From positions 32,001 through 96,000 of IMG/VR virus record IMGVR_UViG_3300005683_000016: DNA of 64,000 nucleotides. One strand, written 5' to 3'. A program made the position numbers and the translations under genes. Under the pieces are notes generated by a model that was not told where the DNA came from, made no database searches, and saw only the letters and a program-made list of their open reading frames with translations. This DNA comes from a virus. Numbering within the stretch: the first letter of the stretch is position 1; the number at the start of each line of letters is the position of its first letter. This document shows positions 188-49,472 of this stretch, one piece after another.

Positions 188-1092
188 CTATTATTTAAAG
201 GTCTTTTTGTAGGATGAGTTAATTGATTACCATGACCATATACAACTTGCTCAAACTTGGAATAACGATCATAAAAAGTTTTTCGAGCATCGTACATCTC
301 TTTGAAATCTACTTGTTTTACAAAAGATCTTGCGTTAGCCTCCAACACAGCAAGTTCGTTCTTTGAATCATGGTATCTTTGTTGTACATCTGCGTCATTG
401 TTCCAGTACATTACTTGAAATACTTTTTTGACACAAGCCCCCTTGATCCATTCTCTGATTCTTGCAAAGTCTGGAATTAACAAATCTTTCCCATCTATGG
501 TATCTTTTTCCAACTTCTGAAGATACTCCATATAAATGTAACCTGTTTCAAAACCTGCTACTAAAAGTTTACTTGACAGGTCTATTTGATGTTGATGCAA
601 AACACTTTTATTAAAGCAATTATTAGCACAGTAAGGTAAAGAAGAATTAGAAATAGATAAAGGAGCAAACTCCTTAAAAGTAACATCAAATGTTTCAAAT
701 CTCTGAACTATTCCCCACTGATCCCCGCACTCATCTGTACACAAAGTCGACTTACCTGTAACCATGAAGTCAGCAATGGTTGAATCGCTGACTTCATACA
801 ATTGAGGATTTTCTGTTGTAGTAGAGGTTATCTTGTAATCAAAACACGCTAATGCCAAGAGTAACTTATGAAAATCATCAGGTAAGGGAGACTTATAGTT
901 GTCTACGAAAAGAGTAGTTTTTCCTACAGGATAAATCTTGGAACCTAACTTGGAAAGACACTCTGCTATCACTGGATATAAGTGAGAATTATCTACTACT
1001 GCTCTTTCAAAATAGACTCGTAGATCGTTCTTTACTTCAGCGAGTAGATCTTCAGCAGTAATAAAATTTACGTTCTTATCGAGATTGGTCAT
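181..1092 (-). CDS. Virion tail ring / tubular-type structural protein
   Basis: 303 aa with an LPDDF motif and a C-terminal 'IPD..IREWI' helix pattern. Synteny matches crAss-like tail genes. Confidence 0.55.
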   Translation of the reverse strand: MTNLDKNVNFITAEDLLAEVKNDLRVYFERAVVDNSHLYPVIAECLSKLGSKIYPVGKTTLFVDNYKSPLPDDFHKLLLALACFDYKITSTTTENPQLYEVSDSTIADFMVTGKSTLCTDECGDQWGIVQRFETFDVTFKEFAPLSISNSSLPYCANNCFNKSVLHQHQIDLSSKLLVAGFETGYIYMEYLQKLEKDTIDGKDLLIPDFARIREWIKGACVKKVFQVMYWNNDADVQQRYHDSKNELAVLEANARSFVKQVDFKEMYDARKTFYDRYSKFEQVVYGHGNQLTHPTKRPLNNRW

Positions 1093-2376: not shown

Positions 2377-3474
2377 TTATGTGTAAAACAAGTAATGTTC
2401 TTCAATTGCGTTGTTGGTAAGGATGTCCATGCATACACCCTTGGTGTTTTGCATGAAATTGGTCTGTGACCATTTGGAAGAACCGTACATAGAGAGAACG
2501 TTCTTATACCTGAAAAATTCTCCAAACTGACAAGATGCTTGATGTTGATCCCCCTTGACTACATGAATGTATTTAGAACTGATTTGATGGGCATCTATAT
2601 ATCTTTTAAAATAAAGTTCGGTCTTTAAGTCCAAGGTAGAAGGTAGGGGATTTTTTAAATCTTCTGCATCCTTACCATGACATAAGATAAAACAATGATT
2701 ATCTATCTCAAAATGCTCGATAAATTTATCTCCTATGTAAACCTCTACATCTGGATATTTAAGATTTATTGCTGTCTCTAATGACTTGTTGCATATCCAC
2801 TCAAAATCCCCTCCGTGATTGGATTCTCCTGCTGTGATATAGGAAAGATTACACTTACACTTTTCTTGAATCGTATGAACAAAGTCCAAATGAACCTTCA
2901 TAAAAACAGAATAAACCTCACGATTGGTCATGTTTTGAGGAAGGGTATGACCTCCTCTTGTAGTTTTTTTATCAAATCCGTCCACGGTGTCTAAAAGATC
3001 TATAAGAACTATAGCATCAAATTGACGATTGTTATGAAGATCAATGATATGCTTTGCCAAAACAGTCATCCTTCTCTCAAACTCTTCAGCATTGTACTCG
3101 TTATCAAAAAGAGAGTTTTCTTTGGTCTGTGCTCCTATATGCTTGTCAGACATATAAACAAGTAGTGCAGAAGAAACATCTTCATAAACAGGTACGGTTT
3201 CTTGAACAGGAGAATAGGTTTTTAAAAAAGATTCGAACTCTTCCTTGTAGTTAACTCCGTCTCCCTGTTTGACCATAAAAGTAGATCTTCCTTTCTCTTT
3301 GATCCATTGAGCCTTGACATCCCAACCTTCTTTGATTTGTTCAAGTGCTTTTTCTTTGGCTTCTCTTACGAGTTCTTCTTCTACTCCCAAAGATTTGGCT
3401 ATAGAAGGAACTCCTTTTTCCAAGTAGGAACGATGTGCAATAAAATGTTGAACAAGTGTTTCTAAAGTGTACAT
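2377..3474 (-). CDS. Calcineurin-like metallophosphoesterase
   Basis: Motifs SDKHIG, DTVDG, SNHGG, LCHG and GDQH appear in canonical order. Confidence 0.75.
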   Translation of the reverse strand: MYTLETLVQHFIAHRSYLEKGVPSIAKSLGVEEELVREAKEKALEQIKEGWDVKAQWIKEKGRSTFMVKQGDGVNYKEEFESFLKTYSPVQETVPVYEDVSSALLVYMSDKHIGAQTKENSLFDNEYNAEEFERRMTVLAKHIIDLHNNRQFDAIVLIDLLDTVDGFDKKTTRGGHTLPQNMTNREVYSVFMKVHLDFVHTIQEKCKCNLSYITAGESNHGGDFEWICNKSLETAINLKYPDVEVYIGDKFIEHFEIDNHCFILCHGKDAEDLKNPLPSTLDLKTELYFKRYIDAHQISSKYIHVVKGDQHQASCQFGEFFRYKNVLSMYGSSKWSQTNFMQNTKGVCMDILTNNAIEEHYLFYT

Positions 3475-3500
3475 TCAGTGTGTTTTTGTAAAAAGTTGAA

Positions 3501-3508
3501 CAAAGATA
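3501..3508 (-). promoter_or_regulatory. Bacteroidota sigma-A -7 element (TATCTTTG)
   Basis: Matches TAnnTTTG 26 nt upstream of the phosphoesterase start, just after a terminator. Confidence 0.6.
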
Positions 3509-3528
3509 TGTCAAATCTTTCAATTAAC

Positions 3529-3560
3529 AAAAAAGCCCCTCTCACTGTTGAGAAGAGCCT
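3529..3560 (-). terminator. Intrinsic terminator
   Basis: GCTCTTCTCA-loop-TGAGAGGGGC followed by TTTTTT on the minus strand. Confidence 0.7.
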
Positions 3561-3589
3561 GTTATAACCAACAATCGGATTTTGCATAT

Positions 3590-4510
3590 TTAAGTGATGA
3601 AATAACTTATTCCAGAGAAGTATACATTTCCGTCAAGATTCACTCCTCCTGCTATATCATCAGCAGCGACAGAAACTATACCACCTGTAGTAATCAGTAT
3701 GCTTGCCCATCCATTTGAATCTGCATCTGTGCATCTTACATAAAAAGTCATATTATATGAAGGTCTGTATTCTACTGGAAGAAGAAAAGTTTGAGTAGAA
3801 TTTTCCCCATTCTTTACCGCACCAGAGATTTTTACTTCATTTCCCTTACGATGTATCCGTATAGGATAGCCCAAAACATCTTCCCAATCATTTTCAAGAT
3901 CTACACTTTCTGTATAGGTGACAAGTTCTCCTGTAAAGTTGTTGCTTACCACAAGCCACTGATAAGAAACGTCATTTATTTGTACGAGTTTAAGTCTAAG
4001 TACTTTGTGAACAGGATCGGCAAGATCATAAAAAGAATTGGTCGTAAGAAGAGGATTCCAACTGTACTGAATCTGTACGTTGAACTTGTAATTCAAAAAA
4101 GCAATCTGATTGTCTGTAACACTACTTATGTCCTTTATCAGGATTTCTTTGTTTATAAAGGCAGAAGTGGTGGGAAGGACTAAAGTATTTTCATAAGTAC
4201 CAGATGCTTCATCATCGGTAAACGTAAGCAGTAGTATTTTGGTAACATCCTCTTCTACAATAGTATAAGAATCTCCATCATCTGTTTCTCCATCAGAATG
4301 AAACTTTATGATCTTGGATGCCATTTCATTGTTACATTCTATCAATTGCAACAAGTCTGTAAGGGTTCTTTTATCACCATCGTCCACACTGGAATTTTCA
4401 AAACAAAGGGGGTCTTTATCATAAATGACACAGTCTGCGTTTACCGTAGAAGCACATCCGGTAGAGCAAGGAGTAATGGTTTTGGTTTGAGAGCAATTTG
4501 TACAAGTCAT
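3590..4510 (-). CDS. Structural/fibre-like protein, paralogue 1 (Cys-rich N-terminus)
   Basis: N-terminal CxxC...NADCV.Y; C-terminal beta domain 'V.ISG...LPVEYRPS...FSGISY' common in tail fibre/baseplate proteins. Confidence 0.55.
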   Translation of the reverse strand: MTCTNCSQTKTITPCSTGCASTVNADCVIYDKDPLCFENSSVDDGDKRTLTDLLQLIECNNEMASKIIKFHSDGETDDGDSYTIVEEDVTKILLLTFTDDEASGTYENTLVLPTTSAFINKEILIKDISSVTDNQIAFLNYKFNVQIQYSWNPLLTTNSFYDLADPVHKVLRLKLVQINDVSYQWLVVSNNFTGELVTYTESVDLENDWEDVLGYPIRIHRKGNEVKISGAVKNGENSTQTFLLPVEYRPSYNMTFYVRCTDADSNGWASILITTGGIVSVAADDIAGGVNLDGNVYFSGISYFIT

Positions 4511-4546
4511 TTTATTTGTCTTAAGAGTTGAGATTTAATTAATTGA

Positions 4547-5395
4547 CTAATCAACATACCAACTTACACCGAACAAAGAAAGATTTTCTCCACTCGTAAG
4601 ATGGGTTCCTCCCGGAAAACTAACTGCAATAAAGGTATTGATCGTAAGAAGTGCTCGATAAGGAGAAGCATCTACCGCTACCAAAAAATAACCGGAAGAA
4701 GAAGGTCTGTCTTTGGCATCAAGATTCAAAAGAGTTGTAGGGACATTTCCTCCAGTGACCATACCCTGCAATTGTCTTAGTTTACCGAGTCTGATAAGTT
4801 TGAGTTCTTCTACTATTTCCCAATTGCCCTCAAGATCTTCATCTGTGAACACTTGAACAGAGGGAGTTCCTATAGAAGGACTTGTTACCACCCAAGAGTA
4901 GTTGATACCGTCTTTTTTCAGATAAGTCAAGTACAAGACTTTGTGAGGCTCCCATGCAAGTTTATCAAACTCGTTTGTTTCCTCTTCTTGATCAAATACA
5001 ATGTTTTCAGAAAACTCCCAATATACTGTACCAGAAGGATCATAATCTACCGAAATATCTTTTAGGATAAGAGTTTTATCTATAAATTCCGCAGACTCTG
5101 GTAATGTAATGGTATAAGTAACATCGTTTGCACTATTGATGTCTCCGTTTAAAAGAAGAATCTTACAAGCATCCTCTGTCAGAATTTCGTAATCTCCTGT
5201 TACAATTTTAGCACTCCTTTCGCACTTATCCTCTCCTATCAGTTCAAGTATCGAAGAAAGAGAACGAGAAGATCCGTTGTTTACATTTGTCTCAAAAGGA
5301 AGTTTGTCTCCCTTATACTCTACACAATCTGCGTTTACAGTATAAGGACAGTCACAGTTTTCCAGACTTACTTTTTTGCATGCTGTACAAGCCAT
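4547..5395 (-). CDS. Structural/fibre-like protein, paralogue 2
   Basis: Likely start MACTACKK at 5395. Collinear similarity to 3590-4510 (NADCV.Y, KILLL, KDIS, HKVL, RPS, G.S). Confidence 0.55.
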   Translation of the reverse strand: MACTACKKVSLENCDCPYTVNADCVEYKGDKLPFETNVNNGSSRSLSSILELIGEDKCERSAKIVTGDYEILTEDACKILLLNGDINSANDVTYTITLPESAEFIDKTLILKDISVDYDPSGTVYWEFSENIVFDQEEETNEFDKLAWEPHKVLYLTYLKKDGINYSWVVTSPSIGTPSVQVFTDEDLEGNWEIVEELKLIRLGKLRQLQGMVTGGNVPTTLLNLDAKDRPSSSGYFLVAVDASPYRALLTINTFIAVSFPGGTHLTSGENLSLFGVSWYVD

Positions 5396-7624: not shown

Positions 7625-10600
7625 TTATTTTATTTCTACAATGGTCTTGTCTGGATCAACTAATATTCTATCAGGATGTACTGCAATACCTACAATCACC
7701 ACACAATCATCAGTACCACTTGGAGCAGTTTGAGTAAGAGTATTTCCTGTTGTTCCCGTAGTAGAAAGATAGACATAACCTCCTACTGTCCAGTTCCAAG
7801 AGTCATTTCTTGCAATACCCTTAAGTAAATAGGTTGCTGAGTTACCAGTAGTAACGGTAGCGGTACACATAGCAACTACTTTTGCTGTTGCTATGCCATC
7901 TGCATCAGCAAGGGTTGCATCACCATCAGAACCTATATATACTACGTCACCAAATGCTTGGTTTTCATTAGCAGTAAAAGTTATTTTTTCACCACTTACT
8001 GTTGTGTTAGAAGAAGGTGCAGCAGTAATTACCATTGAGTTTAAGGTGGTTGTCGTAAAGGACAAACCGTCTCCCAAAGTTACACCAGAAAAATCACCAT
8101 CACCATCGGCACCAACCAGTATCGTCGGGTTATCTGTTGTAAGATCTGAAACCCTTAACTCACCTGTAATGTCTACTGTTCTTGCTGGAGCAGAGGTAGA
8201 ACCAAAACGAGTTGCACCAGCAAAGTTGTTTGTAGTGGAAGAACCAGACTGATAAATACCTTTTGCAGATGAATTTGAATAAGCGATTTCTAATCCTCTA
8301 AAATCTGCAATTGTCGTAAGGGTCGGATTTAAGTAGATTCCTCTGGTAATACCACTTGCTCCACCTGTCTGATTAATCGTAGAAGTAAGATTTAGAGATG
8401 CATATGCTTGAGTACCTGAAGTCGGATTAAAAGTATCATCTAACAGAATAGTATGATCTCCTAAAGTAGTTACACTATAAGTAGAGGGAGAATAGACATA
8501 AATTTCTTCTGCCGAATCATCAAATCCCCACAAAGGATTATTATCGTTCCAAGCAAAAAAGAAAGTTCCGTTGGAAGATGCTTTTGCTACCGTAGCATCT
8601 GGAATAACATCCGAACCTCCATAAATACCATTTCCTGCACCTGCTGTAGCAGTAAGAGTTGTTCCTGTAAGACTTAATCCACTTCCTACTGTAATACTGG
8701 ACAACACACCGTTAGCATCTGCTCCTACTATACTGGCAGGATTAGTAGTAGACAAATCTCGTATTCTTACTTCTCCTCCAACATCAAGAGTTCTACTTGG
8801 ACTTGATGTGGAAGACCCTATTCCTAACTTACCTCTTAGATAAGATCTTACAGTATCACCTTCTGGTTGCCACAAAAACGTGTGAGTAGAAGGTTTATAG
8901 TTGATTCCTCTAAAATCATTGGGAGCAGCAGTAAGAGTAGGATCTATGAACAAACCGTTCATGGGTTGATTTGCACCACTGGTTTGATTTATAGTAGTTC
9001 CCAACCTGAGCAAAGAAGGGTATCCTGTGAGAGTACTTGCCAAAGTAGGTGAGTAAGTACCTTCAATGTTTAAAAAGGTGCTTCCTACAAACGTATCTGT
9101 TTTAGCAGCAGTTGGTACTATAGTTACCCCTTGAATAAAAGAATTACCACCCGGAGGTTCTAATTTTATGGTACCGCCCGATGTTTTCAAGGTCATGTTT
9201 CCAGATCCACTGATATAAGACGCATCGTCTTGATAAAGAGAAAATCCAGTAGAGGAAGAAGATCTTTCAATAAATATACCATCAGCAGTGGTGGATTGTT
9301 TTAAATAAAGTCTATAACTTGAAGAGGGACTTGCTCCAATTCCAACTTGAGCACCATTAAAAGTAAAGTCTGCATCACTAGTAACAGTTTGAGTTCCGTT
9401 AAAATAAGCAACCCTACCGGATACTCCACTACCTGTAATGTCGTCACTTGCATTAGTATCTCCCGTGTTTGTTAAAGTGATAGTGGATCCAGATTCGTTA
9501 ATAGAAAGTCCTGTAGAAGCCTCAATTGTAACAGCAGTAGAACCACTGGTATTACTTACAATAGTAGAGGTGGTTCCGCTTCCAGCACCTACTGTTAAAC
9601 TTCCTTCATTGGTTACACTTCCATCCACTTCAGTTGCTGTCACAGTAACGGCACCTGCGGTTTGAGAAATTACAGCAATCCCCGCTCCTGTAATAGACCA
9701 CGAACCACCACCATTAGATAAAGTATTGGTATAAGTAGTAGTACCTCCGTGAGAATATGTTTGTAGTTCATTTGAAGTACTACCGTCTACCTCGGTAGTA
9801 GTGATACGAAGTACATTGGACGATGGTTCACTAAGTACACTTATTCCTGCTGCTTCAATGGTGATGTCGTTAGAAGAACCAGAAATGTCAAATACATAAG
9901 GATTGCTTCCAGTAAGAGACAAATCTTGTATTTCGTTGGTAGTTGAACCGTCAACTTCAGTTGCACCAATAGTTATGGTTGATCCACTTTCACTTACAGT
10001 GACTATTCCTGATCCTTCTATAGTTACTGCTGTGGAACCAGATGTGTTACTCACAATTGTAGAACTATTTCCACCTCCTGTTCCAACAGTTAAACTACCT
10101 TCATTACTAACACTTGCGTCAGTAGCAGTAAAGACAAGAGTATTTGCCGGAGATTCCGACAAAGTTATACCGCTTCCAGAAATTGTAACGTCTGTCCCTG
10201 TTGACGATTCAATTGTATAAGTAGGCCCTGCACCACCAATTGTAAGATCGGTTGCTCCACCAGTTGCGGTTAAAGTGGTTCCAGACAATGACAATCCTGT
10301 TCCTACTGTAATACCGGCAAAATCACCATCGCCGTCTGCACCTACTAAAACAGTTGGGTTGTCTGTTACCAAGTCGCTGACCCTCAGTTCTCCAGTAACA
10401 TCTAATGTGCGTGCAGGAGTAGAGGTAGATCCTATTCTTGTATTACCTGCAAAGTTGTTTGTAGTACTTGTTCCAGACTGATAAATACCTTTTGCTGTGG
10501 CACTTGAATAAGGTATGTCTATTCCTCTATAGTCTGCTACAGCAGTAAGAGTTGGATTGATATAAATAGATCTGATTATACCGTTTGCTCCACCTGTCTG

Positions 10601-13600
10601 ATTAAATGTTCCATCAAAAATAAGTTGATTGTGGATAGCATTCCCGGACGTGGGGTTGAGTCCGTAAGCAAACCTCATATAGTTTCGTGTACCAGATGTT
10701 TGTCCGAGATTAGCAATGTTTCCTATAATTATACCAGCAGTAGAGTTTGCTGCGTTCGCACTGGCTGTTATATCTATTGCACTTGCAGATGTTGCTGTAT
10801 TCGAAACACTTACTAAACCAGTACTGCCTCCAAGAGTTATATTTTGAGCAGAATTTCCTACAGTATAAGTAGTAGCGACAGTAATGGCAGAGTTGGAAAT
10901 AGTAACTGGTGTGGTAGATCCTATGGATAAAATACCTGTAGAAGTGGTTCTATCTAACTTCATTATCTCTGCCAATGCTCCTGCATTGTCTCCCAACTGA
11001 AAAGACAGTGCTGCTTCCCTATTTGCGTGCGTGGCATTAGTCCAATAAGAAGCGATTCGAGCCATATCTTGATTGGTCGTTGTAGAAGAGTGACCCTGAA
11101 ATAAAAGAGCGTTACCAAACAATGTACCACCAGCAGTAGTCGAGTTAGTACGGAGTGTGAGTATATCAGAAACCGTAACAGTGTTTGCAGTAACCTCTGT
11201 CAGGGTCATTTGTCCTCCGGTGGAAGCACCTGTTGAAATAGATGCTCTTGTTACTCCGTTTGTTTCAAAAGATAAAGTGTTGTTGTCATTTGTACCTATA
11301 ATCATTGCTGCACTGAACGAATTACCATTTTGTAAAACATCTCCCGTACCTATCGGTGTAGCCCACGTTCCATCACCCCTCCAAAAAGTAGAAGAAGATG
11401 CTCCAGAACCACTATTTAAGTTGGCAACGGGAAGGTTTCCTGTAATGGCATCCCCATCGGCTAAATCTAAAGCACCCCAAGCATAAGTAGAGGCTCCAGT
11501 TACTCTTAAAACTTGACCAACTGTAGAAGAGTTTGTGATGGCAGTTACAGCAGAGGTTCCGTTACCCTGTAAAATACCAGTTAAAGAACCTGCTCCAGTA
11601 CCACCACGAGATACCGCTAATTGTCCTGTCCAACCTAAAGTCAAACTTGCGTCTCTCAAAAGAGAAGTGGAGGGGTTTCCTCCTAGAGTTAAAGTAACAT
11701 TGGTGTCGTCTACCTTAGTTAAAGCACCTGCTGCGGTATAAGAAGGTGCTGCTGTAGAACCTGTAGCATTACCAAAGTAAGTATTTGCTCCTGCATTAGA
11801 AAGAGAAAAGGTCAAAGCAGGAGTAGTGGTAGTAGTGGCTTCACTCGTAGTAAACAAAGGAGACAAATCACCCGCACTAAAGTTTGTTACAGTACCATTA
11901 TTTGTTGCTGCAATGGTCACCACACCTGCTCCACTTGTACCAGTAGTAGTTAAGGTAATACCACTTCCTTCGGAAAATTGTATAGACCCGCCAGAATTTG
12001 ACAGGGTTAAAGTGTGTGTAGTAGCATCACTTGTATTAGCAAGTGTTTGAAGTTCGTTGGTAGCAGATTCGTCCTGAAATACTCTGGAAAATACCAAATT
12101 TGTAGTTCCTAAAGTGAAAGGCCCCTTAGTATCTAATTTCCAATAAGTAGCACCATAAGTAGCACCTAATTTTACTGCTACTAAAATACCGGGATCCAAT
12201 TTAGATGCTCCATCAGCATCCGTAGAGCGCGTCCACGATCCTGCTGCACAATCCCAAATGCCGTTTTCTTTAGGATCTGTTTGACCTGCCACTAATACTC
12301 GTTGACCGGCACTAATTGAAACACCATCGATTGTTTCAGTACCACTCAAGTCAAGATTGGAAGTGGCAACTGCTTGAACAAATAATTTAGAAGTAGCAGT
12401 ATGATTGTTAAACGTAAAAGTAGGATTACCAGAAACCCCGTTTGTGTTTGCACTACCAATACCTATGTAGGAGGAGGATAAAGAAGAAGCGGAAATAGAT
12501 CTGGTTGCCCAAGTACCATCTCCTGTTCTTACTGCTAATCCTGTAGTTGATAGTCCTTCAACTCCTGCCAGATCATTTGCAAGAGCAAGGGTCATGTTTC
12601 CACTTGAAGTAACAGGAGAACCCGATACAGTAATACCAGCAGCAGGTTGAGTAATTCCTACACTTGTAACTGTTCCTACAGTGTTAGTTACATCAAAACT
12701 AACGGAGGGACTGTTTGTAAGACTAATAGTAAATCGTTCTATTCCTCCTACAGTAGTAGAGTCTATGGAGAGGTCTTGAGTATCAGTATCAGTAATAGTT
12801 GAGGCTATAGTTACGGTTCCAGCAGAACCAGTACCACCTGTGGTTAAGGTGATTCCAGTACCTTCAATAAATTGAACTGTTCCTCCACTATTAGACAGAG
12901 TTACAGTGTGACTTGTAGCATCAGAAGAATTAGTTATGGTCTGAAGTTCGTTCGTGGTAGAGCCATCTACTTCGGTAGCAGTTATTGTTAAAGTGTTAGA
13001 AGTAGCATTATAAGAAGTAGAAGCAATACCAGCACCAGCAAATAATAAAGTTTGGTTGCTAATAACCTCAGTATCTCCTGCGTCACCATCTACTGTCCAA
13101 GCCTCATTAGTAGTACTACCATCTGTTTCAGTTGCTGTAATAGTAAAGTTTGGGTATGTTCCAGTTATGTCTACTATTCCACCTTCAGTAAGAGAAACAG
13201 TTTGATCAGGAGCACTGTTAGTAATAGTTATAGCGTCTGTACCTGCATTTGTGGTAATGGTAATTCCAGTACCGTTTACTAATGTTAAAGCGTCTGTAGT
13301 ACCGTCTGCAACTACATCAGATTGTCCAGAAACTGAAACTGTCTGAAAGATATTTTGAAGTTCGTTGGTTGTGCTACCATCTACCTCTGTAGTAGTGATT
13401 CTAAGAACATTAGCAGAAGGCTCACTAAGTACAGAAATACCAGACGCTTCTATTGTAATGTCATTAGAAGAAGTAGAGATGTCAAAAACATACGGATTGG
13501 TTCCTGTTAAAGAAAGATCTTGAATCTCATTAGAGGTAGAAGCATCTACAGCAGCAATAGTTAATTCGTTAGAACTGCGACTAAGAGTAATACCAGATCC

Positions 13601-16600
13601 TTCAGCGAAAGTTACATCTGTACCTGTGTTTGAATTAAGAGTATAGGGAGAACTGGAACCTGAAAAGGTTAAATCAGTTACCCCTGCACCCGGAGTAGCA
13701 GCAATAGTAATAGTAGAACCAGATTCAGTAATAGTAACGTTAGAACCGCCCTCTATAGTTACTGCGGTAGATCCACTTGTATTACTAACTATGGTTGAAG
13801 AGTTACCTCCACCAGCACCTACAGTGAGTGAACCTTCATTAGTTACGCTCCCGTCTACCTCAGTAGAAGTAATTAAGAGCACATCAGTAGAAGTATTATA
13901 GTCAGTAGTAGTTATACCTGCACCCTGAAACTTTACAGTCTGATTACTAATAACTTCAGTATCAGCATCGTCAGCATCAATAGTCCATGCTTCATTTGTA
14001 GTGGAACCATCGACTTCAGTAGAAGTTATTGTAAAATTTGGATAAGTACCTGTCACTACAGTAATTCCACCATTATTTAATACAACAGTTTGATCGGGAG
14101 AAGAGTTAGTAATAACCAAAGTGTTAGCAGGACTCTCTGAAAGTGAAATTCCAGTACCGGCAGAGAAATTAACATCGTTGGAAGAACCACTAATATCTAA
14201 GGTGTAAGGAGAAGAAGAACCTGTAATAGTTAAGTCTTGAATCTCATTTGAAGTGCTTCCATCCACCTCCGTAGCAGTAAGAGTAATAGAACCACCATTA
14301 GAAGAAGTAGACTCACTAATCGCAAGAATACCAGCAGCATTTATAGTTACAGCGTTTCCAGTAGAAGTTGTAGTTAACAAAGTAGCAGATGTACCACTAC
14401 CTGCACCAACTCCTAAAATACCTTCGTTGGATATACTACCATCAACTTCAGTCCCTGTAATGATTAAAGTATTAGCAGGAGACTCGGAGAGTGTAATTAT
14501 ACCGGCACCAGAAATAGTTATATCTGTTCCTGTAGAAGACTCTACTGTGTAAGTAGGCCCGCTTCCTCCGATAGTTAAATCAGTAGATGCAGAAGGAGGT
14601 ACAGCCCAAGTTCCATCTTCTCTTAAAAACTCATCAGTACCACTTCCGTCTCCATCTGGAACCAAACCTCTTAAAGAGGAAGTCATTATTGGAATAGTAG
14701 TACCTGTTCCACCACTAATACCCAAAGCCCCGGTAGATTGAGTATAACTTAAATTTTGAGCATCGGTGTTATCTAAGTAGGAAGAGAGATCAACTGTTTT
14801 GAAAGGAACCCCATCAGAACTAAGAGAAGCACGAAGTATATTACTTACAATTTCAAATGTATCAATTTGTTGAATTTCATTTGTCGTGCTACCGTCTACT
14901 TCAGTACTCGTAATAGTAATGGTGTTTCCAGATTCGTTTACAGTAGTAATTCCAGATCCAGTAAGTGTAATAGTTGCGCTACCAGAACTGTTAGATTGGA
15001 TTAAAGAAGTGGTTCCAGTACCTGCTCCTACTGATAATACACCTTCATTTGTAACAGATCCATCTACCTCTGTTGCAGTTAAAATTAAAGTATTTGCAGG
15101 TGATTCACTTAAAGTTAAGATACCTGCCCCTTGAATAGTTACATCAGAACCCCCACTGATAGCAATATCGTAAGTAGGCCCCGATCCTTCTATGGTAAGA
15201 TTTTGAGCATCTGTATTAGTGACAGTACTCGCTATAGTAAAATTGGGATAAGTCCCTGTTACATCAATCCCTGTTCCTTCAGAAAGACTAACCGTTTGGT
15301 CTGGAGAACTATTAGTAATAGTTAACTCATTAGAAGAACGAGACAATGAAATTCCTGTGCCAGCAGCAATGGTCACATCTGTTCCAGAAGACGAGTTTAA
15401 TGTAAACGGAGTAGATGCTCCGGTAAAAGTAAGGTCGGTAGCTCCTCCCGAAGGAGCATCACCCCAATATATCTGCGAACCAGATGAATACAGTATTTGT
15501 CCAGCATCACCATAAGTTCCTGCTGATTTTATCGCAATGCTGTCCGGCGTGACCTGGATCAGATTGTTAGCACTGTTTGCCAACTGAACAACATCATTGT
15601 CAATATATACTTGTGCTTGTGCATTTGGACTGTAAAATCCTACGTGCCCATCTGTGGCAAGCGAATCTTCGCCAGAGTAGAAATCTGCCATGATCTCGCT
15701 GTTCGGATACATGAACTGAATGCTTGCAACACTGTCAAAATTTACGAGCCTAACGGTATCGGCCAAAATATTTCCATTTGAGTTGTAGATATTCTGACCA
15801 CCGGCAGTATTAATGTCAAAATAAATTGAATTGCCATCTTCAATACTGATTTCAAATCTTTCAATGTCTCCGATCATTGCGGAGTCAATCGAAAGGTTTT
15901 GGTTGTCTGTGTCAGTAATGGTGCTTGCGATGGTGAAATTCGGGTATGTGCCCGTCACATCAATTCCCGTACCCTCGGAAAGGCTCACTGTTTGGTCAGG
16001 CGCCGAGTTGGTGATGGTAAAATTGGGATAGGTGCCACTCACGCTGATCCCCGTTCCGTTGTTCAGAACAACCGTCTGATCGGGCGCTGAGTTGGTAATC
16101 ACCAAGGTATTTGCCGGGGACTCCGACAATGTGACCCCTGTTCCAGAAGCAAAATTCACATCGTTTGCCGAACCTGAAATGTCCAGGGTGAATGGGGAAG
16201 AAGACCCTGTGATGCTCAAGTCCTGTGCGTCGGTATTGACGTATGAAGAAAGATCAACGCTGGAAAAAGGAAGTCCGTCGTTTAACAGCGAAAGCCTGAG
16301 GGTATTTGACACGATCTCAAATGTATCAATGGTCTGGATTTCGTTAGTAGTAGACCCATCCACTTCGGATTGGAGATACCTTCCATCGAGATCTACTGTA
16401 TTACCTCCACTGATTGAGAGTTCTCCATTAGACCCATTCCAAGAGAGTGTTTGAGCATCAGTATTCGTAGAGGTATTAGTAATGGTAAAGTTGGGATAAG
16501 TTCCAGTAACTGAGATACCTGTACCATTATTAAGCACTACTGTCTGATCAGGAGCAGAGTTTACTAAAGTAGTTCCACTGAAATTTAACCCTGTTCCTAA

Positions 16601-18055
16601 GGTAATTTCACTTACATTAGCAGTAGATCCTGTAGGATTTCCTAACAATGTTTGAGCAGTGGCTTGCTGCATCTTAGCGTAAGTAATTTGATTATTACCT
16701 ACATGGATAGTCAAAACATTCAAGGTGTCTAAGAAAAGACCTCCCGGAATCCAGTTAGAACCATCGGATGCGTAGAAGTATTTAGATCCGTTAACATCTA
16801 CTGTTTTTAGAATAATAGACCCCTCTATATCTACAGAGGGTAAAGGAGTTATAATATCTAAATTATAAACTTGAGGACTGCTTCCACTTACTCCCGGAAG
16901 AACTACAAAGTCTTCGGGAATAGAATCATTAAATAGAGAGATGTAAAGAGTATCATTAGAAACTCTAAACGTGTCTACATACTGAAGATATGTATCGTCG
17001 TTATAATCTTTATGAGTAATACTTAAGGAGTCAAACGTAGCCCTGTGATCTGAGTAGTAACGAGCATCATTACCTCTGATAGTAACTCGATCTGGAGAAG
17101 TAGTAAATAAATTAATCCCATTACCACTTATGTCTAATCTATTAGTTCCTCCTATGTCGTTTTGTTTAAGAGTTAAACTATCAGGAGTAAATCTTGCTTG
17201 TGCTCCATATACTGTAAGATCGTAAAGGATGTCAAAATAAGCAGAATCTTTATCTGACAAAAAGGTGATACCGGAATCAATTACTGCTTCGTGATGATAA
17301 GTTACAGTGTCAGAAACTCCATAAATACCACCTCCTTGACTTGCAGAAAGTCCAGTAAGAACTACAAATTTTTTAGGAACTCCATCACTTGACAGTGAGA
17401 GATAAAGAGTGTCGTTAGATAGAACGAAGGAATCTATCTGTTGAATTTCATTAGTAGTAGATCCATCAACCTCTGTTGAGGTTATAGTAAAGTTAGGATA
17501 CGTTCCACTAATAGCACTAATACCTGCTCCAGTTAAAGTCACAGTCTGGTCAGGAGAACTATTTGTGATAGTAAAATTAGGATAAGTTCCACTTGTAGTT
17601 ATTCCTGTACCAGAGTTTAAAACTACAGTTTGATCAGGTGCTGTGTTAGTGATTATGTTACTACCTATGCTAATTCCTGTTCCTGCTGTGTAAGGTACTG
17701 AAGCACAGTTAAGACAATTCCAAGTAGAACTGTTGTACCAATAAATTAAGTTAGAGTTGTTAATAATAAAGTCTGGTTCCCCATACTTGGGAGACACAGT
17801 AGGAGCAGCATTGGAGTTTAGTTTACCAATCATAGATCCTGCTAAAACCCACACACTATTAGTGCGGTTAAATCTCCAAATCTTCGAAGTGGTAATATCT
17901 ATGGCCCATTCACTGTCATATTGAACTCTTGGTGTACCTGTAGGTTGACCATTAGTATAAATAACAGCAGCACCTTTACTCACGTTAGTAACCTGAGAAT
18001 AGAGGGAAATAGTAGAAATTAAAAGCAAAAGAGTAAAAATAATTTTATTCAACAT
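7625..18055 (-). CDS. Giant (~3,476 aa) Ser/Thr/Gly-rich repeat fibre/adhesin protein with N-terminal signal peptide
   Basis: Probable start [20 protein letters not shown]|Q at 18055 (the tracked start at 18163 lies inside the upstream gene). Many EVDGSTTNE(I/L)Q and PDQTV...GTYPNFTI repeats, a phage-fibre 'TIDGV...RVLV..QT..ENGIW...WTR' domain, and a C-terminal cement-like domain. Confidence 0.8.
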
Positions 18056-18419
18056 CTTCAACAAGGAGTTTAGGTGAACCATAAGGTAATCCATAAGTAT
18101 TATTTTCTGAAAGATAATAGATTTTGTCTTTTTGTACTCCGTTATCAAAGGCTTCTTGGTCATTAATAAAGAATTTAATAACGGTAGTTTCTCCGGGTAA
18201 AAGAGTACCGTCAGAAGTTACTATTCCCACATATCGAGTAGTTACCGAGAAAATTTCCGTAACTTCTTGGGGAAAGAATGAATTATTAAGTAAAAGATAA
18301 CTGTGTAGTAATTCAGACCAATCAATATCTTTTTGTCCTATTCCAAGATACCTTGAGAGGACATATTTATATTGTTGATTGAATAGTTTACATTTGGATT
18401 TATCGAGAGAAAACCGCAT
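18045..18419 (-). CDS. Hypothetical structural-module protein
   Basis: 124-aa ORF tightly packed in the operon. Confidence 0.6.
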
Positions 18420-31676: not shown

Positions 31677-32201
31677 TTAATCGTCATAATCGCTTTCATA
31701 ATCTTCATCTACTGCGTTTTGAGCATCTCCTCTGTTTCTTTGAAGTTCTTGCTTGTAAGCATTTTCTGCTTCTTGATAAGCCTTGAGAATTTGAGGTAAA
31801 GATTTAATAGTCTGGACTATCTGAGATAAGTTGCCGTCTCTACCATCAGAGATTTCAGTCTCACTTAAGAAGGACGAGATGTTTTCTACTGCTCTCTTTG
31901 CTCCTGCGAGAATCTTTCTTAAGGGAGAAAAGTAAAGACGTTCTGCTTTATCTATAGCCTCAGACATTTCAATAGACTGGAGATACTTTTGTACAGGAAA
32001 GTCTTTAAGTACTTGAGCCTCTCTCTCATGTTCTTCAAAGTTCATATAAGGACTTTGTGGATCGTACATCCCCCAAATGTACATGAAGGGAAGAGTGTCT
32101 CCTTGAAAGAACTCTAAGAGAGCATTAAATTCAGGTATGGCAAATATAGTCTCATCCAGAATTATTTTATTCTGACTGACCGTTAGTATTCTTGGAAGCA
32201 T
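31677..32201 (-). CDS. Conserved protein upstream of terminase (possible small subunit)
   Basis: 174-aa helical protein with 'DPQSPY' and 'DGRDGN..Q' motifs and an acidic tail; position upstream of terL. Confidence 0.5.
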   Translation of the reverse strand: MLPRILTVSQNKIILDETIFAIPEFNALLEFFQGDTLPFMYIWGMYDPQSPYMNFEEHEREAQVLKDFPVQKYLQSIEMSEAIDKAERLYFSPLRKILAGAKRAVENISSFLSETEISDGRDGNLSQIVQTIKSLPQILKAYQEAENAYKQELQRNRGDAQNAVDEDYESDYDD

Positions 32202-42535: not shown

Positions 42536-42560
42536 ATTTACCTATATTATATATAGGTGT

Positions 42561-42613
42561 AACTGTCCAGAGATATGTATCTCTGCTGATGAGTCCTAAA
42601 GGACGAAACAGTT
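42561..42613 (+). ncRNA. Type III hammerhead ribozyme
   Basis: AACTGT-C | CAGAGAT-ATGT-ATCTCTG | CTGATGA | GTCC-TAAA-GGAC | GAA-ACAGTT: complete core with a GUC cleavage triplet (cut after 42567). Confidence 0.93.
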
Positions 42614-42741
42614 TTATTTACTATTGGACATCATTAAGGTGCTCCGATAGTATTTAGACCAGAAGGATGGTTTATTAATAATCATTTAATGGTCTTAGTT
42701 ACTTAATTAAGTAAATAGTACAATTAATATTGGTATCAAGC

Positions 42742-44173: not shown

Positions 44174-44587
44174 ATGCTTTACCTATTCAACACTACAATC
44201 ATGCCTAATGAAGGCGTGTTTGTAAATCGCAAAGTATCCAAAGAACAAGCCTGGGAGATTATTGCAAACGCACCAGCGTTTACATCTGCGTTGGGCCATC
44301 AAGGCTCAGCAGATGTATTTAATGCTGTGTTTCCAACATTTGAAGTATCTGTAAATCGCATCCAAGCACAAATGCAACCCAAAGATGAGGCAGTATGTCT
44401 CAAAGTGTTGGGTCGTCTTCCAGAAGGACAAATCCTTTCTCTTGAACAATTGCAAGAGATTGGTTTCGAATTTTTCCATGTCCAAATGGTCATGGGAATT
44501 ACAGAAAACCCAATCGCATTTACTTGCGAGATGGGAGGGTCAAAAAACGAAAAAACATTCACCGCGTTTGGTGAGTGTAAATTTTAA
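44174..44587 (+). CDS. acrIII-1: DUF1874 / AcrIII-1 family viral ring nuclease
   Basis: YLFN N-terminus, FTSALGH (catalytic His), VNRI and GRLPEGQIL: the signature motifs of the STIV B116/YddF family. Confidence 0.88.
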   Translation: MLYLFNTTIMPNEGVFVNRKVSKEQAWEIIANAPAFTSALGHQGSADVFNAVFPTFEVSVNRIQAQMQPKDEAVCLKVLGRLPEGQILSLEQLQEIGFEFFHVQMVMGITENPIAFTCEMGGSKNEKTFTAFGECKF

Positions 44588-44598
44588 AAAAAACTATT

Positions 44599-44838
44599 AT
44601 GAAAAAACTTTTGCATCCAGTTACCCTTTTCCTGATCGGATATGTAATATCCGTGATTTGGATTTTTTGGGGCACTCCAGTTCCTAAATACTTTAATTGG
44701 CTTCCATTTGGAAACGCCAATGCTGGTATTTTCGTTATTGGAGGAACGGTTCTGATTGCAGCAATAGGAATATTGCTGTTGTTTACAGGATTTAAATATG
44801 TTGATTGGTACGAAAAAAAATATCAATCAAAAGATTAA
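44599..44838 (+). CDS. Two-TM membrane protein
   Basis: Two hydrophobic segments. Confidence 0.65.
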   Translation: MKKLLHPVTLFLIGYVISVIWIFWGTPVPKYFNWLPFGNANAGIFVIGGTVLIAAIGILLLFTGFKYVDWYEKKYQSKD

Positions 44839-45599: not shown

Positions 45600-45605
45600 A
45601 CAATC

Positions 45606-45773
45606 AAAATCAAAAGTGAAGTGAAATATATCCATAATGTAATAGACGGTAAGCAGTCCGTTGAGCATATTTGGTTAATCGTGAATGTACTATGTACAAT
45701 GCGAGTATTAAGACCTTTAACGGGTTGCAAGGAGATAATATAATTATCAAATTGTAGGACGGCTTTTGATTTT
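45606..45773 (+). ncRNA. Unidentified multibranched structured RNA
   Basis: Closing stem AAAATCAAAAGT/GCTTTTGATTTT encloses TCCATAAT/ATTGTAGGA and four hairpins. Confidence 0.5.
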
Positions 45774-45897
45774 TTTTAATAAGATTACGGTGAGAATCCG
45801 TCTCTCAGCAAAGTAGTAATACTTGAACTAATAGAGAGTGTAATAAGATGTTCAGTAGCGAAGAAATTAATTTTTCTTAGCGAGAATGGAGAAATCC

Positions 45898-46041
45898 TCT
45901 GAAGTTATTACAGATAACCATGTGGGGCTTATGTCTTGAAATTCTTAAAAAGTGGCGCACTTTTTATTAATAAGTTATAATTCTGTATTAGTACAGCGTA
46001 ACTTAGATTATCAAGCATTAGTGCAGACTTAAAAATCATGG
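45898..46041 (+). ncRNA. Hatchet ribozyme with expanded P4
   Basis: P1 TCTG/CAGA, then CCATG-TGGGGCTTATG-T-CTTGA...TCAAG-CATTAGTGCAGAC-TTAAAAAT-CATGG. This matches the hatchet core as I recall it (CAUGUGGGGCUUAU...AUUAGUGCAGAC...CAUG), with compensatory changes. Confidence 0.85.
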
Positions 46042-46163
46042 AGTGGTACGACCTCAACTCGTATAATCTTTGTTGCAGATATTGATGAAAACATGAAAAG
46101 ATGTTCTGAGAGTCTTTTAAAAAGGTATCAAAAAGCAAAAGAAATTTTATTAAAAATATAAAA

Positions 46164-46594
46164 CATTCACTCCGTAAAGTCTCAGTCTTTAACAGGACTC
46201 ATCACAATTCCTTTAACGTAACATAAGTTGGTGGAACAACAGGCTTAGGTCTGTCTCACAAGTATGGTGGAAGTTTGGTTGGTAAAGACAGGAGATAATG
46301 TAATCCGAAAGGATTGGCAGCAGATGGACATTGTGTTCTTAGAACATAAATAGGTCAATACAAGATGAACAGATTAAATGCTGTTATGCTTGGACGTTTC
46401 CTTATCTGCCTTTTCAAGGTAACACTTTCAAACCAGTAATGGTGAGATAATGAAGAGTATACATGTGGCAAAAGTGTTCCAGTAAGAGCATACCCACCTG
46501 ACAGGGTAATTCCAGTTTCCAAATTGTATAAGGAAACAAACGGGTTAGGATATAATTGTGCAGACGCCCTAATAGTTAGGCTAAGGGTGTAACA
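46164..46594 (+). ncRNA. Unidentified large structured RNA, copy A
   Basis: Shares conserved blocks and covarying stems with 47241-47677. Confidence 0.75.
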
Positions 46595-46599
46595 ACTCC

Positions 46600-47230
46600 C
46601 AATCATTGGGTTAAATGGTAGTTATCAGTTACTTTAACTGATTTAGTTTACCTGTTTGTATAAATTTAACAGGAGTTCTTGTACATACAAGTGTTGTTAC
46701 TTTTTCCAGCAGTCAGAAAAAAGCGTGTAATCTACGAGATAAGATTAACCTACTGTACTTAGGTTTGAGGGTAGTTCCATGTACAACATTGAACCGAAAG
46801 GTATCATGTAAGCCCTTAAGTGGGATAAATTGAGTTAAATTGTGTTAGGTTGAAAATATACCTGTAAGAAATAATACATTTTTCGCATTTGTGAGATTTG
46901 TTAAGGTTCTTCCACAATAATATCCTACACTCAACGATGGCAGCCGGGTTGGAACCCACAGTAGATAAATAACTATACTCTTTTAGGGAGTGAAGTCAGT
47001 GTAGTTTTACTGAAAAAGTTAGTATTTATTAGACTGTTTAATAGGCGTTTTGTATATTGTAAAGTTGAATTTGTATCATAGAGAATCTGTGGGTGGATTT
47101 GCCTAATGTTAGGTGAGAGTAAGTTCGATCCTTACCGTTGATATAAATTTAACAGATATACAATCCTATACTATATAAGTCTGATCAACTTATGTAGTAA
47201 TTGTGCGACCCACATTATTGTGGGTGACAT
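46600..47230 (+). ncRNA. Unidentified ~630-nt ornate RNA (ROOL/GOLLD size class)
   Basis: No ORF; many hairpins and long-range stems; ends in the same 3' module as copies A and B. Confidence 0.6.
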
Positions 47231-47240
47231 TTTTTAAAAA

Positions 47241-47677
47241 CATCCACTCTGTAAAGTCTTGTAATTCGCGGAAGGTTTAACCAAATATTCTCTCTTTGGG
47301 GATAAAAAAGGTGAGAATCCTTTTTCTGTGTATAGACAGGAGATGATGTAAACCAATAATATGGTTTGGCAGCAGATGGACATTGTTATTTCTTAAATGA
47401 ACTAATAAATAGGTTACTGTTCAACTTATATAAGTTGAAAGAGATTTCCTTATCTGCCTCTTCACGTTAATAGCGTTCAAGATACACTATGACCGTTGTG
47501 AAATTCAACAGGAACTACTGATTCTATACCAATCAGAGTAGTGTACATCCAGTAATGGTGAGATAATGAAGAGTATACTAAGGGTAGTCCGTAATTCAGA
47601 AATGAATTAGAGTGGGAAAATAGACTTATAAAAATCCTACCTTAGTAATTGTGCGGCATCCCAAGTGGATGCAACAT
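47241..47677 (+). ncRNA. Unidentified large structured RNA, copy B
   Basis: Conserved blocks and covarying stems shared with copy A. Confidence 0.75.
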
Positions 47678-47689
47678 TTATTAACAAAA

Positions 47690-47724
47690 TTTTAACTTTT
47701 AACTTTTAACTTTTAACTTTTAAA
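47690..47724. repeat. Tandem heptamer (TTTTAAC)x4 plus TTTTAAA
   Basis: Read directly; lies immediately upstream of the ATG at 47737. Confidence 0.9.
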
Positions 47725-47736
47725 ATTGTAACGGAC

Positions 47737-48114
47737 ATGCAATTTACATTAGATCACAAAGTAGGAACAAACTATGTAACTGTCACTTTAAGTGGAAAAG
47801 TATCTCCACTTATATGGTGTGAGTTTTTCACAAAACTCCAATATCTTGGAGGAAAACAAGCAGTAGAAGGACAGTCGGATATTTGGCTGTTACCTACTTT
47901 TGTTACATCACAAGTCATTGAAGAAATCATCCATAACACATGTTTCGTGTGTGGTGGATTGATGAAAGATTCTACTGCATTTTTGAATGACTGTGTATCA
48001 TTCGATGATTTTGGTAATGATGCTGGACAACGAGGTACAACACAATCACGTGTTGGAGAAGCAAAACAAGTCAAAGTTCGCAAGTGCTCTTCTTGCGGAC
48101 ACTCACACACTTAA
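47737..48114 (+). CDS. Hypothetical protein with Zn ribbon
   Basis: CFVCGG ... KCSSCGHS. Confidence 0.7.
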   Translation: MQFTLDHKVGTNYVTVTLSGKVSPLIWCEFFTKLQYLGGKQAVEGQSDIWLLPTFVTSQVIEEIIHNTCFVCGGLMKDSTAFLNDCVSFDDFGNDAGQRGTTQSRVGEAKQVKVRKCSSCGHSHT

Positions 48115-49386: not shown

Positions 49387-49472
49387 GCTCCTGTGGCGAA
49401 ATTGGCAGCACGCTGCGGTCTTAAACACCGTTGGAGAAATCCGTAAGGGTTCAAGTCCCTTCAGGAGCACCA
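49387..49472 (+). tRNA. tRNA-Leu (anticodon TAA)
   Basis: GCTCCTG/CAGGAGC acceptor, GCGGT-CTTAAAC-ACCGT anticodon arm, long variable arm, TTCAAGT T-loop, encoded ACCA. Confidence 0.93.

Follow-up and report, generated by a model that had tools for sequence, protein, structure and literature searches.

To our knowledge, only a handful of large 'ornate' RNA classes have been described from bacteria and their phages, namely OLE, GOLLD, ROOL and raiA. Three of these four were recently shown to form RNA-only dimers or cages. ROOL typically derives from Firmicutes prophages, and OLE is found in bacteria, namely extremophilic Bacillota, where it works together with proteins. The dimerisation initiation site of HIV-1 is a loop of ~9 nt with a central palindrome between unpaired purines (AAGCGCGCA), and its natural variants swap palindromes.

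The palindrome of loop L9.3 in OLE mediates a symmetric dimer, and the apical loop L21a of GOLLD, which switches between self-complementary sequences, forms a symmetric intermolecular kissing loop; both intermolecular loops have been visualised by cryo-EM, and the switching of a palindrome from GGCC to GAUC or AGCU was used as evidence for such loops (Kretsch et al. 2025, PMC12286853). GOLLD consists of a conserved part joined to variable regions able to hold tRNA(-like) elements, and ROOL is an ornate, pseudoknotted RNA encoded near tRNAs, without a known protein partner, that multimerises via kissing loops and A-minor contacts (PMC12286853). In the crAss-like phage phi14:2, long intergenic regions are reported to be transcribed more strongly than most genes (10.1101/2020.03.07.982082).

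Here we analysed a stretch of 64,000 nucleotides from the virus record IMGVR_UViG_3300005683_000016 (positions 32,001 to 96,000; hereafter the window), which encodes an RNA that we term M. It is a member of a large structured RNA family that is absent from Rfam, real, conserved and strongly covarying, and a literature search did not find this family described. M represents a new class within a known kind, the large ornate phage RNAs of tRNA islands: like ROOL and GOLLD, it is phage-encoded, is longer than 250 nt, contains many covarying helices and has tRNA genes nearby.

M and GOLLD (RF02032) are both large phage RNAs found near tRNA islands, and both combine a conserved part with variable regions able to contain tRNA-like elements and have a palindrome-switching apical loop; however, GOLLD exceeds 800 nt, whereas the M core spans 244-450 nt across the family, and the consensus sequences and helices of the two differ. 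ROOL (RF03087) is likewise an ornate phage or prophage RNA near tRNAs, but it differs from M in architecture and apparently also in host phylum, judging by the crAss-like terminase of the M phages. The L9.3 loop of OLE resembles the P6 helix of M in bearing an apical tetranucleotide palindrome that switches (GGCC, GAUC and AGCU in OLE; GGCC, GUAC, (U)GAUC(A), UAAUUA and UUGCAA in M), although OLE is of bacterial rather than phage origin and has no sequence or model similarity to M. The M loops RAAGGCCAA and RAAGUACAA also recall the HIV-1 site in their palindrome with purine flanks, but the latter belongs to the genome of a eukaryotic retrovirus, with neither origin nor context in common with M.

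As a further ornate class, M would bring in another phage lineage of ecological importance (crAss-like, Bacteroidota), and its compact core is well suited to cryo-EM. It offers a clear mutable prediction, namely that the palindromic P6 loop mediates self-association, for which natural variants already swap the palindrome. The array of paralogous RNAs, self-cleaving ribozymes and tRNAs in which it is embedded provides a concrete system for studying how phages make and use such RNAs.

The locus and its array of RNA elements

The virus genome record comprises 142 kb and encodes the phage hallmark genes for portal, large terminase and major head protein. The large terminase (TerL) is 24-27% identical to the terminases of crAss-like phages of Bacteroides, Flavobacterium and Cellulophaga, a resemblance that makes a host within Bacteroidota likely. 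The phages carrying the M family are probably distant relatives of crAss-like phages with hosts among the Bacteroidota. The window also contains an ORF of 3512 aa (7625-18163, minus strand), comparable in size to the giant virion proteins (RNA polymerases) known from crAss-like and N4-like phages.

The locus is a 2.1-kb ORF-free gap (45600-47737) within a gene cluster on the plus strand. As the first-pass annotation had stated, the region studied here holds no ORF of note, the sole frame, on the minus strand, being a GTG frame of 47 aa. An Rfam scan of the whole window at the gathering score detected three elements, a hammerhead ribozyme, a hatchet ribozyme and a tRNA-Leu at 49387, and no match was found within 46042-47737, even when the region was scanned with permissive filters at E<=10. 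The window and the majority of the homologous loci contain tRNAs on the same strand, and homing endonucleases are frequent near M. A Bacteroidota -7 promoter motif was sought, with no informative match. The elements follow one another on the same strand in the order hatchet ribozyme, F, X, M, F (Table 1).

Table 1. Positions of the RNA elements in the window and of the conserved parts of M
Feature	Position	Strand	Description and evidence
Type III hammerhead	42560-42614	+	49.7 bits; 3.3 kb upstream of hatchet, same strand
Hatchet self-cleaving ribozyme	45894-46041	+	RF02678; 67 bits (gathering score 51); heads the RNA array
F copy A	46160-46597	+	Paralogous RNA of ~440 nt (probable), directly upstream of the X/M region
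Module X	46591-46781	+	Separate conserved cassette; left border AACAACUCC, right border AACAUU
M RNA	46782-47231	+	~450 nt; homologues, HMM, fold z-score, RNAalifold
P1	46786-46809	+	95.8% of cells paired; 7/9 pairs with changes on both sides
P2	46812-46824	+	Hairpin CCC-UUAAGU-GGG; 100% paired
P3	46829-46935	+	AUUGAG (46829-46834) with CUCAAC (46930-46935); encloses V1
GAUGGCAGC junction and P4, long form	46936-47047	+	Hairpin GGGU-UGGA-ACCC at 46945-46957
P5	47050-47163	+	UUGUAUAU/AUAUACAA; z = -3.53; RNAalifold; encloses V2
P6	47169-47199	+	12-bp stem (47169-47180/47188-47199); loop CUGAUCA (47181-47187), palindrome UGAUCA
3' module	47200-47231	+	AUUGUGC, P7 hairpin (47208-47225) and tail GACAUU; common to flanking F copies
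F copy B	47237-47680	+	Paralogous RNA of ~440 nt (probable), directly downstream of M

The two F copies have in common the exact 30-mer CCAGTAATGGTGAGATAATGAAGAGTATAC and several other blocks. F also shares with M the AACAUU start, the AUGUAA-hairpin, the GGCAGC helix and the 3' module; the closing pairs of its P1 (ACAU...AUGU, CUCC...GGAG) are as in M, and both F copies and M end with AUUGUGC, a hairpin and RACAU. The matching 5' hairpin logic and 3' module suggest that M and F are paralogues. The succession of M and then F recurs in seven lineages, including the loci L001, L009, L015, L021, L029 and L037.

A single RNA of ~630 nt, as the region had first been read, is not what the comparison revealed: M starts at ~46782, and the first 190 nt (46591-46781) constitute the separable module X. 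This cassette is conserved in L029 (3047-3243, minus strand) and in L028, and in L029 it is positioned after M and before an F unit with the same AACAACUCC and AACAUU borders; its fold carries no thermodynamic signal relative to chance (z = 0.11). The long-range helix proposed between ACTTTTTCCAG (46699) and CTGAAAAAGT (47010), i.e. ACUUUUUCCAG/CUGAAAAAGU, would join X to an optional insert of P4. It is not conserved, and it lacks support because the P4 insert is missing in most homologues and forms a local fold of its own.

The cassette borders fall exactly on AACA(U/A) motifs, which also follow P7 where an ORF rather than an RNA comes next. The AACAU motif was considered as a general gene punctuation and rejected, being no more frequent than expected by chance upstream of protein genes. 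Elsewhere in the window, a small hairpin (AACAUUCACC-GCGUUU-GGUGAGUGU; 44553-44585, plus strand), positioned about 15-45 nt upstream of an ORF starting at 44599, mimics the P1 logic of F and M with its ACA...UGU closing pairs. About four tandem copies of the heptamer TTTTAAC (47687-47716, plus strand) separate F copy B from a 125-aa Zn-ribbon-like ORF that begins at 47737. The family of the Zn-ribbon-like protein counts 163 homologues, many of them from phages without M.

Homologues and conserved core of M

Homologues of M were retrieved with three independent sequence patterns and then confirmed by HMM, chance matches being set aside. The first pattern described the 3' blocks (GATATACAATCCTA N15-45 ATTGTGC), the second the P4 flanks and the third the 5' hairpin region. 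Besides the window copy, 20 distinct homologues were obtained from phage/IMG/VR and metagenome contigs, and the full-length copies scored 148-229 bits. The window copy is also more stable than expected from its composition, as none of 100 shuffles was equally stable (z = -2.93). Among the other searches, the pattern TGTTTAATAGGCGTTTTG recovered L001 only, the pattern GCCGGGTTGGAACCCAC returned mostly GC-rich chance matches, and contigs encoding homologues of the Zn-ribbon protein yielded L009 and L015; a related-locus search with this downstream protein gave nothing. Bacterial genomes contained no M homologue, the sole match (L044, a Flavobacterium MAG) being due to chance, and blastn of the 2.1-kb island against GenBank phages found nothing.

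The M core comprises seven conserved helices, including the long-range helices P3 and P5. Covariation was counted on sub-alignments and by scripts, and P1, P2, P3, P4, P6 and P7 were all found to covary strongly. P1 and P2 together are 96.9% paired in 16 sequences, with nine of the 13 pairs changed on both sides; none of 500 shuffles was as good, and slid controls reached only 25-47%. P1 contains the ACC-GAAA-GGT hairpin that had been noticed in the window and that is indeed real and conserved across the family. From its ACA/UGU closing pairs, P1 proceeds through an optional 1-nt bulge to two 3-bp segments separated by a bulged A, the second of them capped by the GAAA loop. The bulged A is invariant, and the GAAA tetraloop (46796-46799) is invariant in the 16 aligned homologues and was seen in all 17 sequences then in hand. 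The CCC/GGG strands of P2 are replaced by CUC/GAG, UUCC/GGAA or CUAC/GUAG among the homologues. P3, which reads GUUGAG/CUCAAC across the family, is 95.8% paired vs 62% in shuffles, with two to four pair types per position, and inside it the conserved junction AUAUCCUACA (46920-46929) lies alongside the variable domain V1.

P4 occurs in a long and a short form. In the window copy it carries an 80-nt three-way insert (46958-47037) that folds locally (z = -2.48), and in 12 homologues the short form, GCAGGU-UGGAU-ACUUGC, is 98.6% paired vs 74.5% when shuffled. The helix UUGUAUAU/AUAUACAA (47050-47057 with 47156-47163), originally seen in the window sequence only, turned out to be the family-conserved P5. 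It is almost invariant, and the A-to-G changes in L009, L015, L027 and L035 preserve G-U pairs. An alternative pairing, ACAAU/AUUGU at the base of P6, conflicts with P5, and the latter is favoured by the double change in L065, in which a G-C pair is compensated to A-U. The reported extension of P5, GUUGAAUUUGUAUCA/UGAUAUAAAUUUAAC, is the basal helix of V2; it is real as well, and is limited to the window copy and close relatives.

V2 also holds the T-loop described previously. The motif stands as a canonical T-arm (GUAAG-UUCGAUC-CUUAC, 47119-47135), but it lies in a variable insert and is shared only by the L021 lineage. Despite this arm, the V2 insert is tRNA-like only: in a search for a tRNA or tmRNA, ARAGORN and Rfam called nothing but the tRNA-Leu at 49387.

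P7 forms a hairpin in all 17 copies examined, with a GNRA loop in 11. Near-invariant strands occupy the junctions of M (GAAGGCAGC, GCGUUUUGUAUAU, GAUAUACAAUCCUA and AUUGUGC), and large inserts are tolerated at three positions, namely V1, the P4 insert and V2. RNAalifold applied to five short members recovered P1, P2, P4, P5, P6 and P7 independently, and it also proposed a 3-bp closing helix, GCA/UGC, between GGCAGC and AUUGUGC. A further candidate is a pseudoknot in which the P4 loop (UGGAU) pairs with the junction AUCC, with covariation in L011 (AGGAAU/AUUCCU) and L035 (UUGGU/ACCAA); it remains tentative because it amounts to only 3 bp in the window copy. Many U-G pairs of M are possible on the plus strand only, and therefore the structure is one of the RNA, made from this strand.

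The P6 stem and its palindromic loop

The 12-bp stem capped by CUGAUCA had been singled out from the window alone. The stem proved to be a family-wide feature, and the loop sequence is limited to the window copy and close relatives. The P6 stem is 99.4% paired, all 12 pairs show double changes, and none of 500 shuffles was as good. A palindrome of at least 4 nt is present in the P6 loop of 19 of 20 members with the canonical architecture, distributed over five classes (16/16 among the first members, window included). These are GGCC (L001, L015, L021, L043), GUAC/UGUACA (L022, L025, L029, L035, L037, L041), UGAUCA (window, L009, L023, L056), UAAUUA (L011, L027) and a fifth that emerged from a prediction test. 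In this test, homologues were fetched via the 5' domain alone, without reference to P6, and all three canonical ones were palindromic: L062 with GUAC, L064 with UAAUUA and L065 with UUGCAA, the new class. In the divergent copy L063, a hairpin loop contains AAGCUU, and the exception is L054, a divergent canonical member with no clear palindrome in its P6 loop. The palindrome is usually placed between unpaired, non-complementary purine flanks (RAA...AA).

When the loop-shuffle probabilities were multiplied over four classes, a value of about 6e-5 was obtained. Because 37% of random A/U-rich 9-mers already include a palindrome of 4 nt or longer, no single loop is decisive, and the weight of the argument comes from consistency and switching. 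L001 and L037 are 89% identical in the 5'/core part and carry unrelated P6 cassettes (GGCC vs UGUACA), both of them palindromic, and the window copy and L009 show the reverse pattern. P6 thus behaves as an exchangeable cassette among the M variants. Since the homologues are kin and P6 is swapped as a block, the independent palindrome switches are fewer than the sequences.

This switching is of the same kind as that used as evidence for intermolecular loops by Kretsch et al. (2025, PMC12286853), and symmetric kissing is hence taken as the most likely role of P6, its apex being a candidate kissing loop through which M would self-associate. The suggestion that the region encodes a new multimerising RNA gains comparative support to this extent, from the loop palindromes and the 12 covarying stem pairs. 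We consider it somewhat probable that M is, as a whole, an uncatalogued structured phage RNA with a conserved core that self-associates via the P6 kissing loop. Overall, what the first-pass annotation had observed is partly confirmed, and its interpretation is partly supported.

According to this model, which follows the symmetric kissing loops used by OLE, GOLLD and ROOL, M would be transcribed and then released from the array. Two M molecules could join by a symmetric loop-loop contact between their palindromic P6 apices, each presented on a rigid 12-bp stem, and the outcome would be a homodimer or a larger particle, either RNA-only or RNA-protein. The palindrome carried by a copy would determine its possible RNA partners. 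The genes next to M offer no link to a function. One possibility, considering the tRNA-like insert and the tRNA-island setting, is that the particle sequesters or presents tRNA-related factors of the host or phage. An extended version, which we regard as unlikely, would treat the island as an 'RNA operon' of modular design whose ornate RNAs form a new superfamily. Its units might be excised at shared AACAU junctions, possibly by the RNAs themselves. The 3' ACAU could then re-form P1, so bringing both ends into proximity, and the P6 cassettes would serve as self-labels for like-with-like dimers or particles with tRNA-like domains.

Alternative readings and neighbouring elements

M could instead be a monomeric scaffold or a protein-bound RNA, with the P6 apex being either the site of a dimeric protein or a DNA-level by-product, arising from cassette recombination or as the target of a homing endonuclease. 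The movement of P6 hairpins between M variants as blocks would fit such an origin, as would the frequency of homing endonucleases nearby, one of them inside an M homologue, and the fact that a hairpin with a palindromic loop approximates a perfect DNA palindrome. However, the U-G pairs of the stem correspond to C-A mismatches on the other strand and break the DNA symmetry, and the non-complementary purine flanks are kept around the palindrome as in kissing loops such as the HIV-1 site. In addition, no conserved protein gene accompanies M. We therefore hold this reading to be rather unlikely, and continue to favour the symmetric kissing of P6.

M, F and X could also be parts of a self-processing RNA or a large ribozyme, in which the AACAU borders would be sites of cleavage or ligation and the ACAU at the 3' end could take the place of its 5' counterpart in P1. 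AACA(U/A) is conserved at the two termini of M as well as at the borders of F and X, the cassettes are shuffled exactly there, and L011 reads AAUA instead of AACA both at the 5' copy and after P7. The near-invariant junction strands are reminiscent of catalytic cores, and ribozymes are at hand, with hatchet and hammerhead in the island and a twister ribozyme in L015. Nevertheless, the motif has only 4-5 nt and is enriched 2.3-fold in the island, the known self-cleaving classes are far smaller than M, and the borders could equally be host RNase sites or recombination joints, which makes self-processing improbable as the explanation of the array.

It is very unlikely that M is a cis-acting element of a neighbouring gene, whether as a leader, as a terminator region or as a group-I-like intron. 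In 11 of the 17 loci checked, the 3' AACAU is followed at a distance of 4-43 nt by the start of an ORF; however, the ORFs downstream of M share no similarity, which argues that M is not a leader, and in the window, L015 and L029 it is followed by an RNA instead of an ORF. P7 together with its U-run looks terminator-like in the window copy, but the U-run is missing from most homologues. One M homologue harbours a GIY-YIG ORF in the manner of group I introns, yet Intron_gpI has no match in the region, the flanks are unrelated and provide no conserved exons, the outer pairs of P1 are A-U, C-G and A-U with no U-G at the P1 site, and the 3' border is preceded by U, C, G or A rather than by a conserved G. 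Readings of M as a group I intron or as RNase P-like or tmRNA-like were rejected, as they were based on short motif resemblances with no model support.

The ROOL/GOLLD-like identity that had initially been proposed as one of two options is hardly credible as family membership, even for a divergent form, in spite of the similar size class, phage origin, tRNA-island setting, conserved 3' part and variable inserts with a tRNA-like one, because no model of these families matches at E<=10 in the region, at M in ten homologous loci, or anywhere in the 142-kb genome (ROOL, RF03087, with control genomes in the same search likewise giving none; GOLLD, RF02032, whose model represents the conserved 3' domain). 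OLE and all other Rfam families were rejected for the region on the same threshold, and M was unmatched by Rfam in the ten loci. One of the homologous loci, L043, has a match to GOLLD (567-967, plus strand; 89.3 bits, E = 8e-22) that covers the whole model and is below the gathering score of 150. This GOLLD-like RNA is a separate gene 1.7 kb upstream of M, so the model is able to detect such RNAs in these phages, and M is distinct from this one.

Several other elements were observed in the related loci. Upstream of M, L015 contains a twister-P3 ribozyme and L029 a sub-threshold hatchet (41.8 bits). A conserved non-coding element of about 240 nt, termed Y, was found in L015 (4047-4284), L009 (2138-2371) and L056 (1642-1824, minus strand). 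The window lacks Y, which immediately precedes M in L015 and L056 and terminates in a covarying hairpin (AUAGG...CCUAU / ACAGG...CCUGU) with AACAUU after it. On the 244.7-kb phage contig L063, an M-like RNA (11220-12330, minus strand) contains a same-strand 216-aa GIY-YIG/NUMOD homing-endonuclease ORF, inserted between P2 and P3 with about 12 nt partly duplicated (GGGATAAGTT / GGAGATAAGTTTGAG). The 3' half of this RNA differs from M and retains UAUUGUGC-hairpin-AACAAC in addition to its AAGCUU loop.

The long gene-free region of the M locus resembles the intergenic RNAs of Cellulophaga phage phi14:2, a distant crAss-like relative that infects Bacteroidota, in which the region is early. No similarity to M, F, X or Y was detected by nhmmer in the long non-coding regions of that phage. 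One of its long intergenic regions with reportedly high transcription (L061, about 3990-4560) resembles a tmRNA gene by eye (GGGGUCGAC ... GGGGGUUCGAAUCCCCCCGACUCCAC).

Pieces similar to tRNA or tmRNA were present in L001 (5445-5550, minus strand), L015 (3960-4045, plus strand) and L037 (1934-2055, plus strand). They combine an acceptor-like stem with a GGUUCGAUUCC T-arm that terminates in ACCA, the L001 piece also containing a long internal insert, and their matches to tmRNA are weak (E = 0.05-2.4). In L009, positions 3385-3590 (plus strand) read as a hatchet ribozyme core (CAACCAUGUGGGGC ... GUGCAGACUUAAAAAUCAUGG) that does not attain the gathering score, and this sequence accommodates an insert of ~110 nt with a T-arm-like hairpin.
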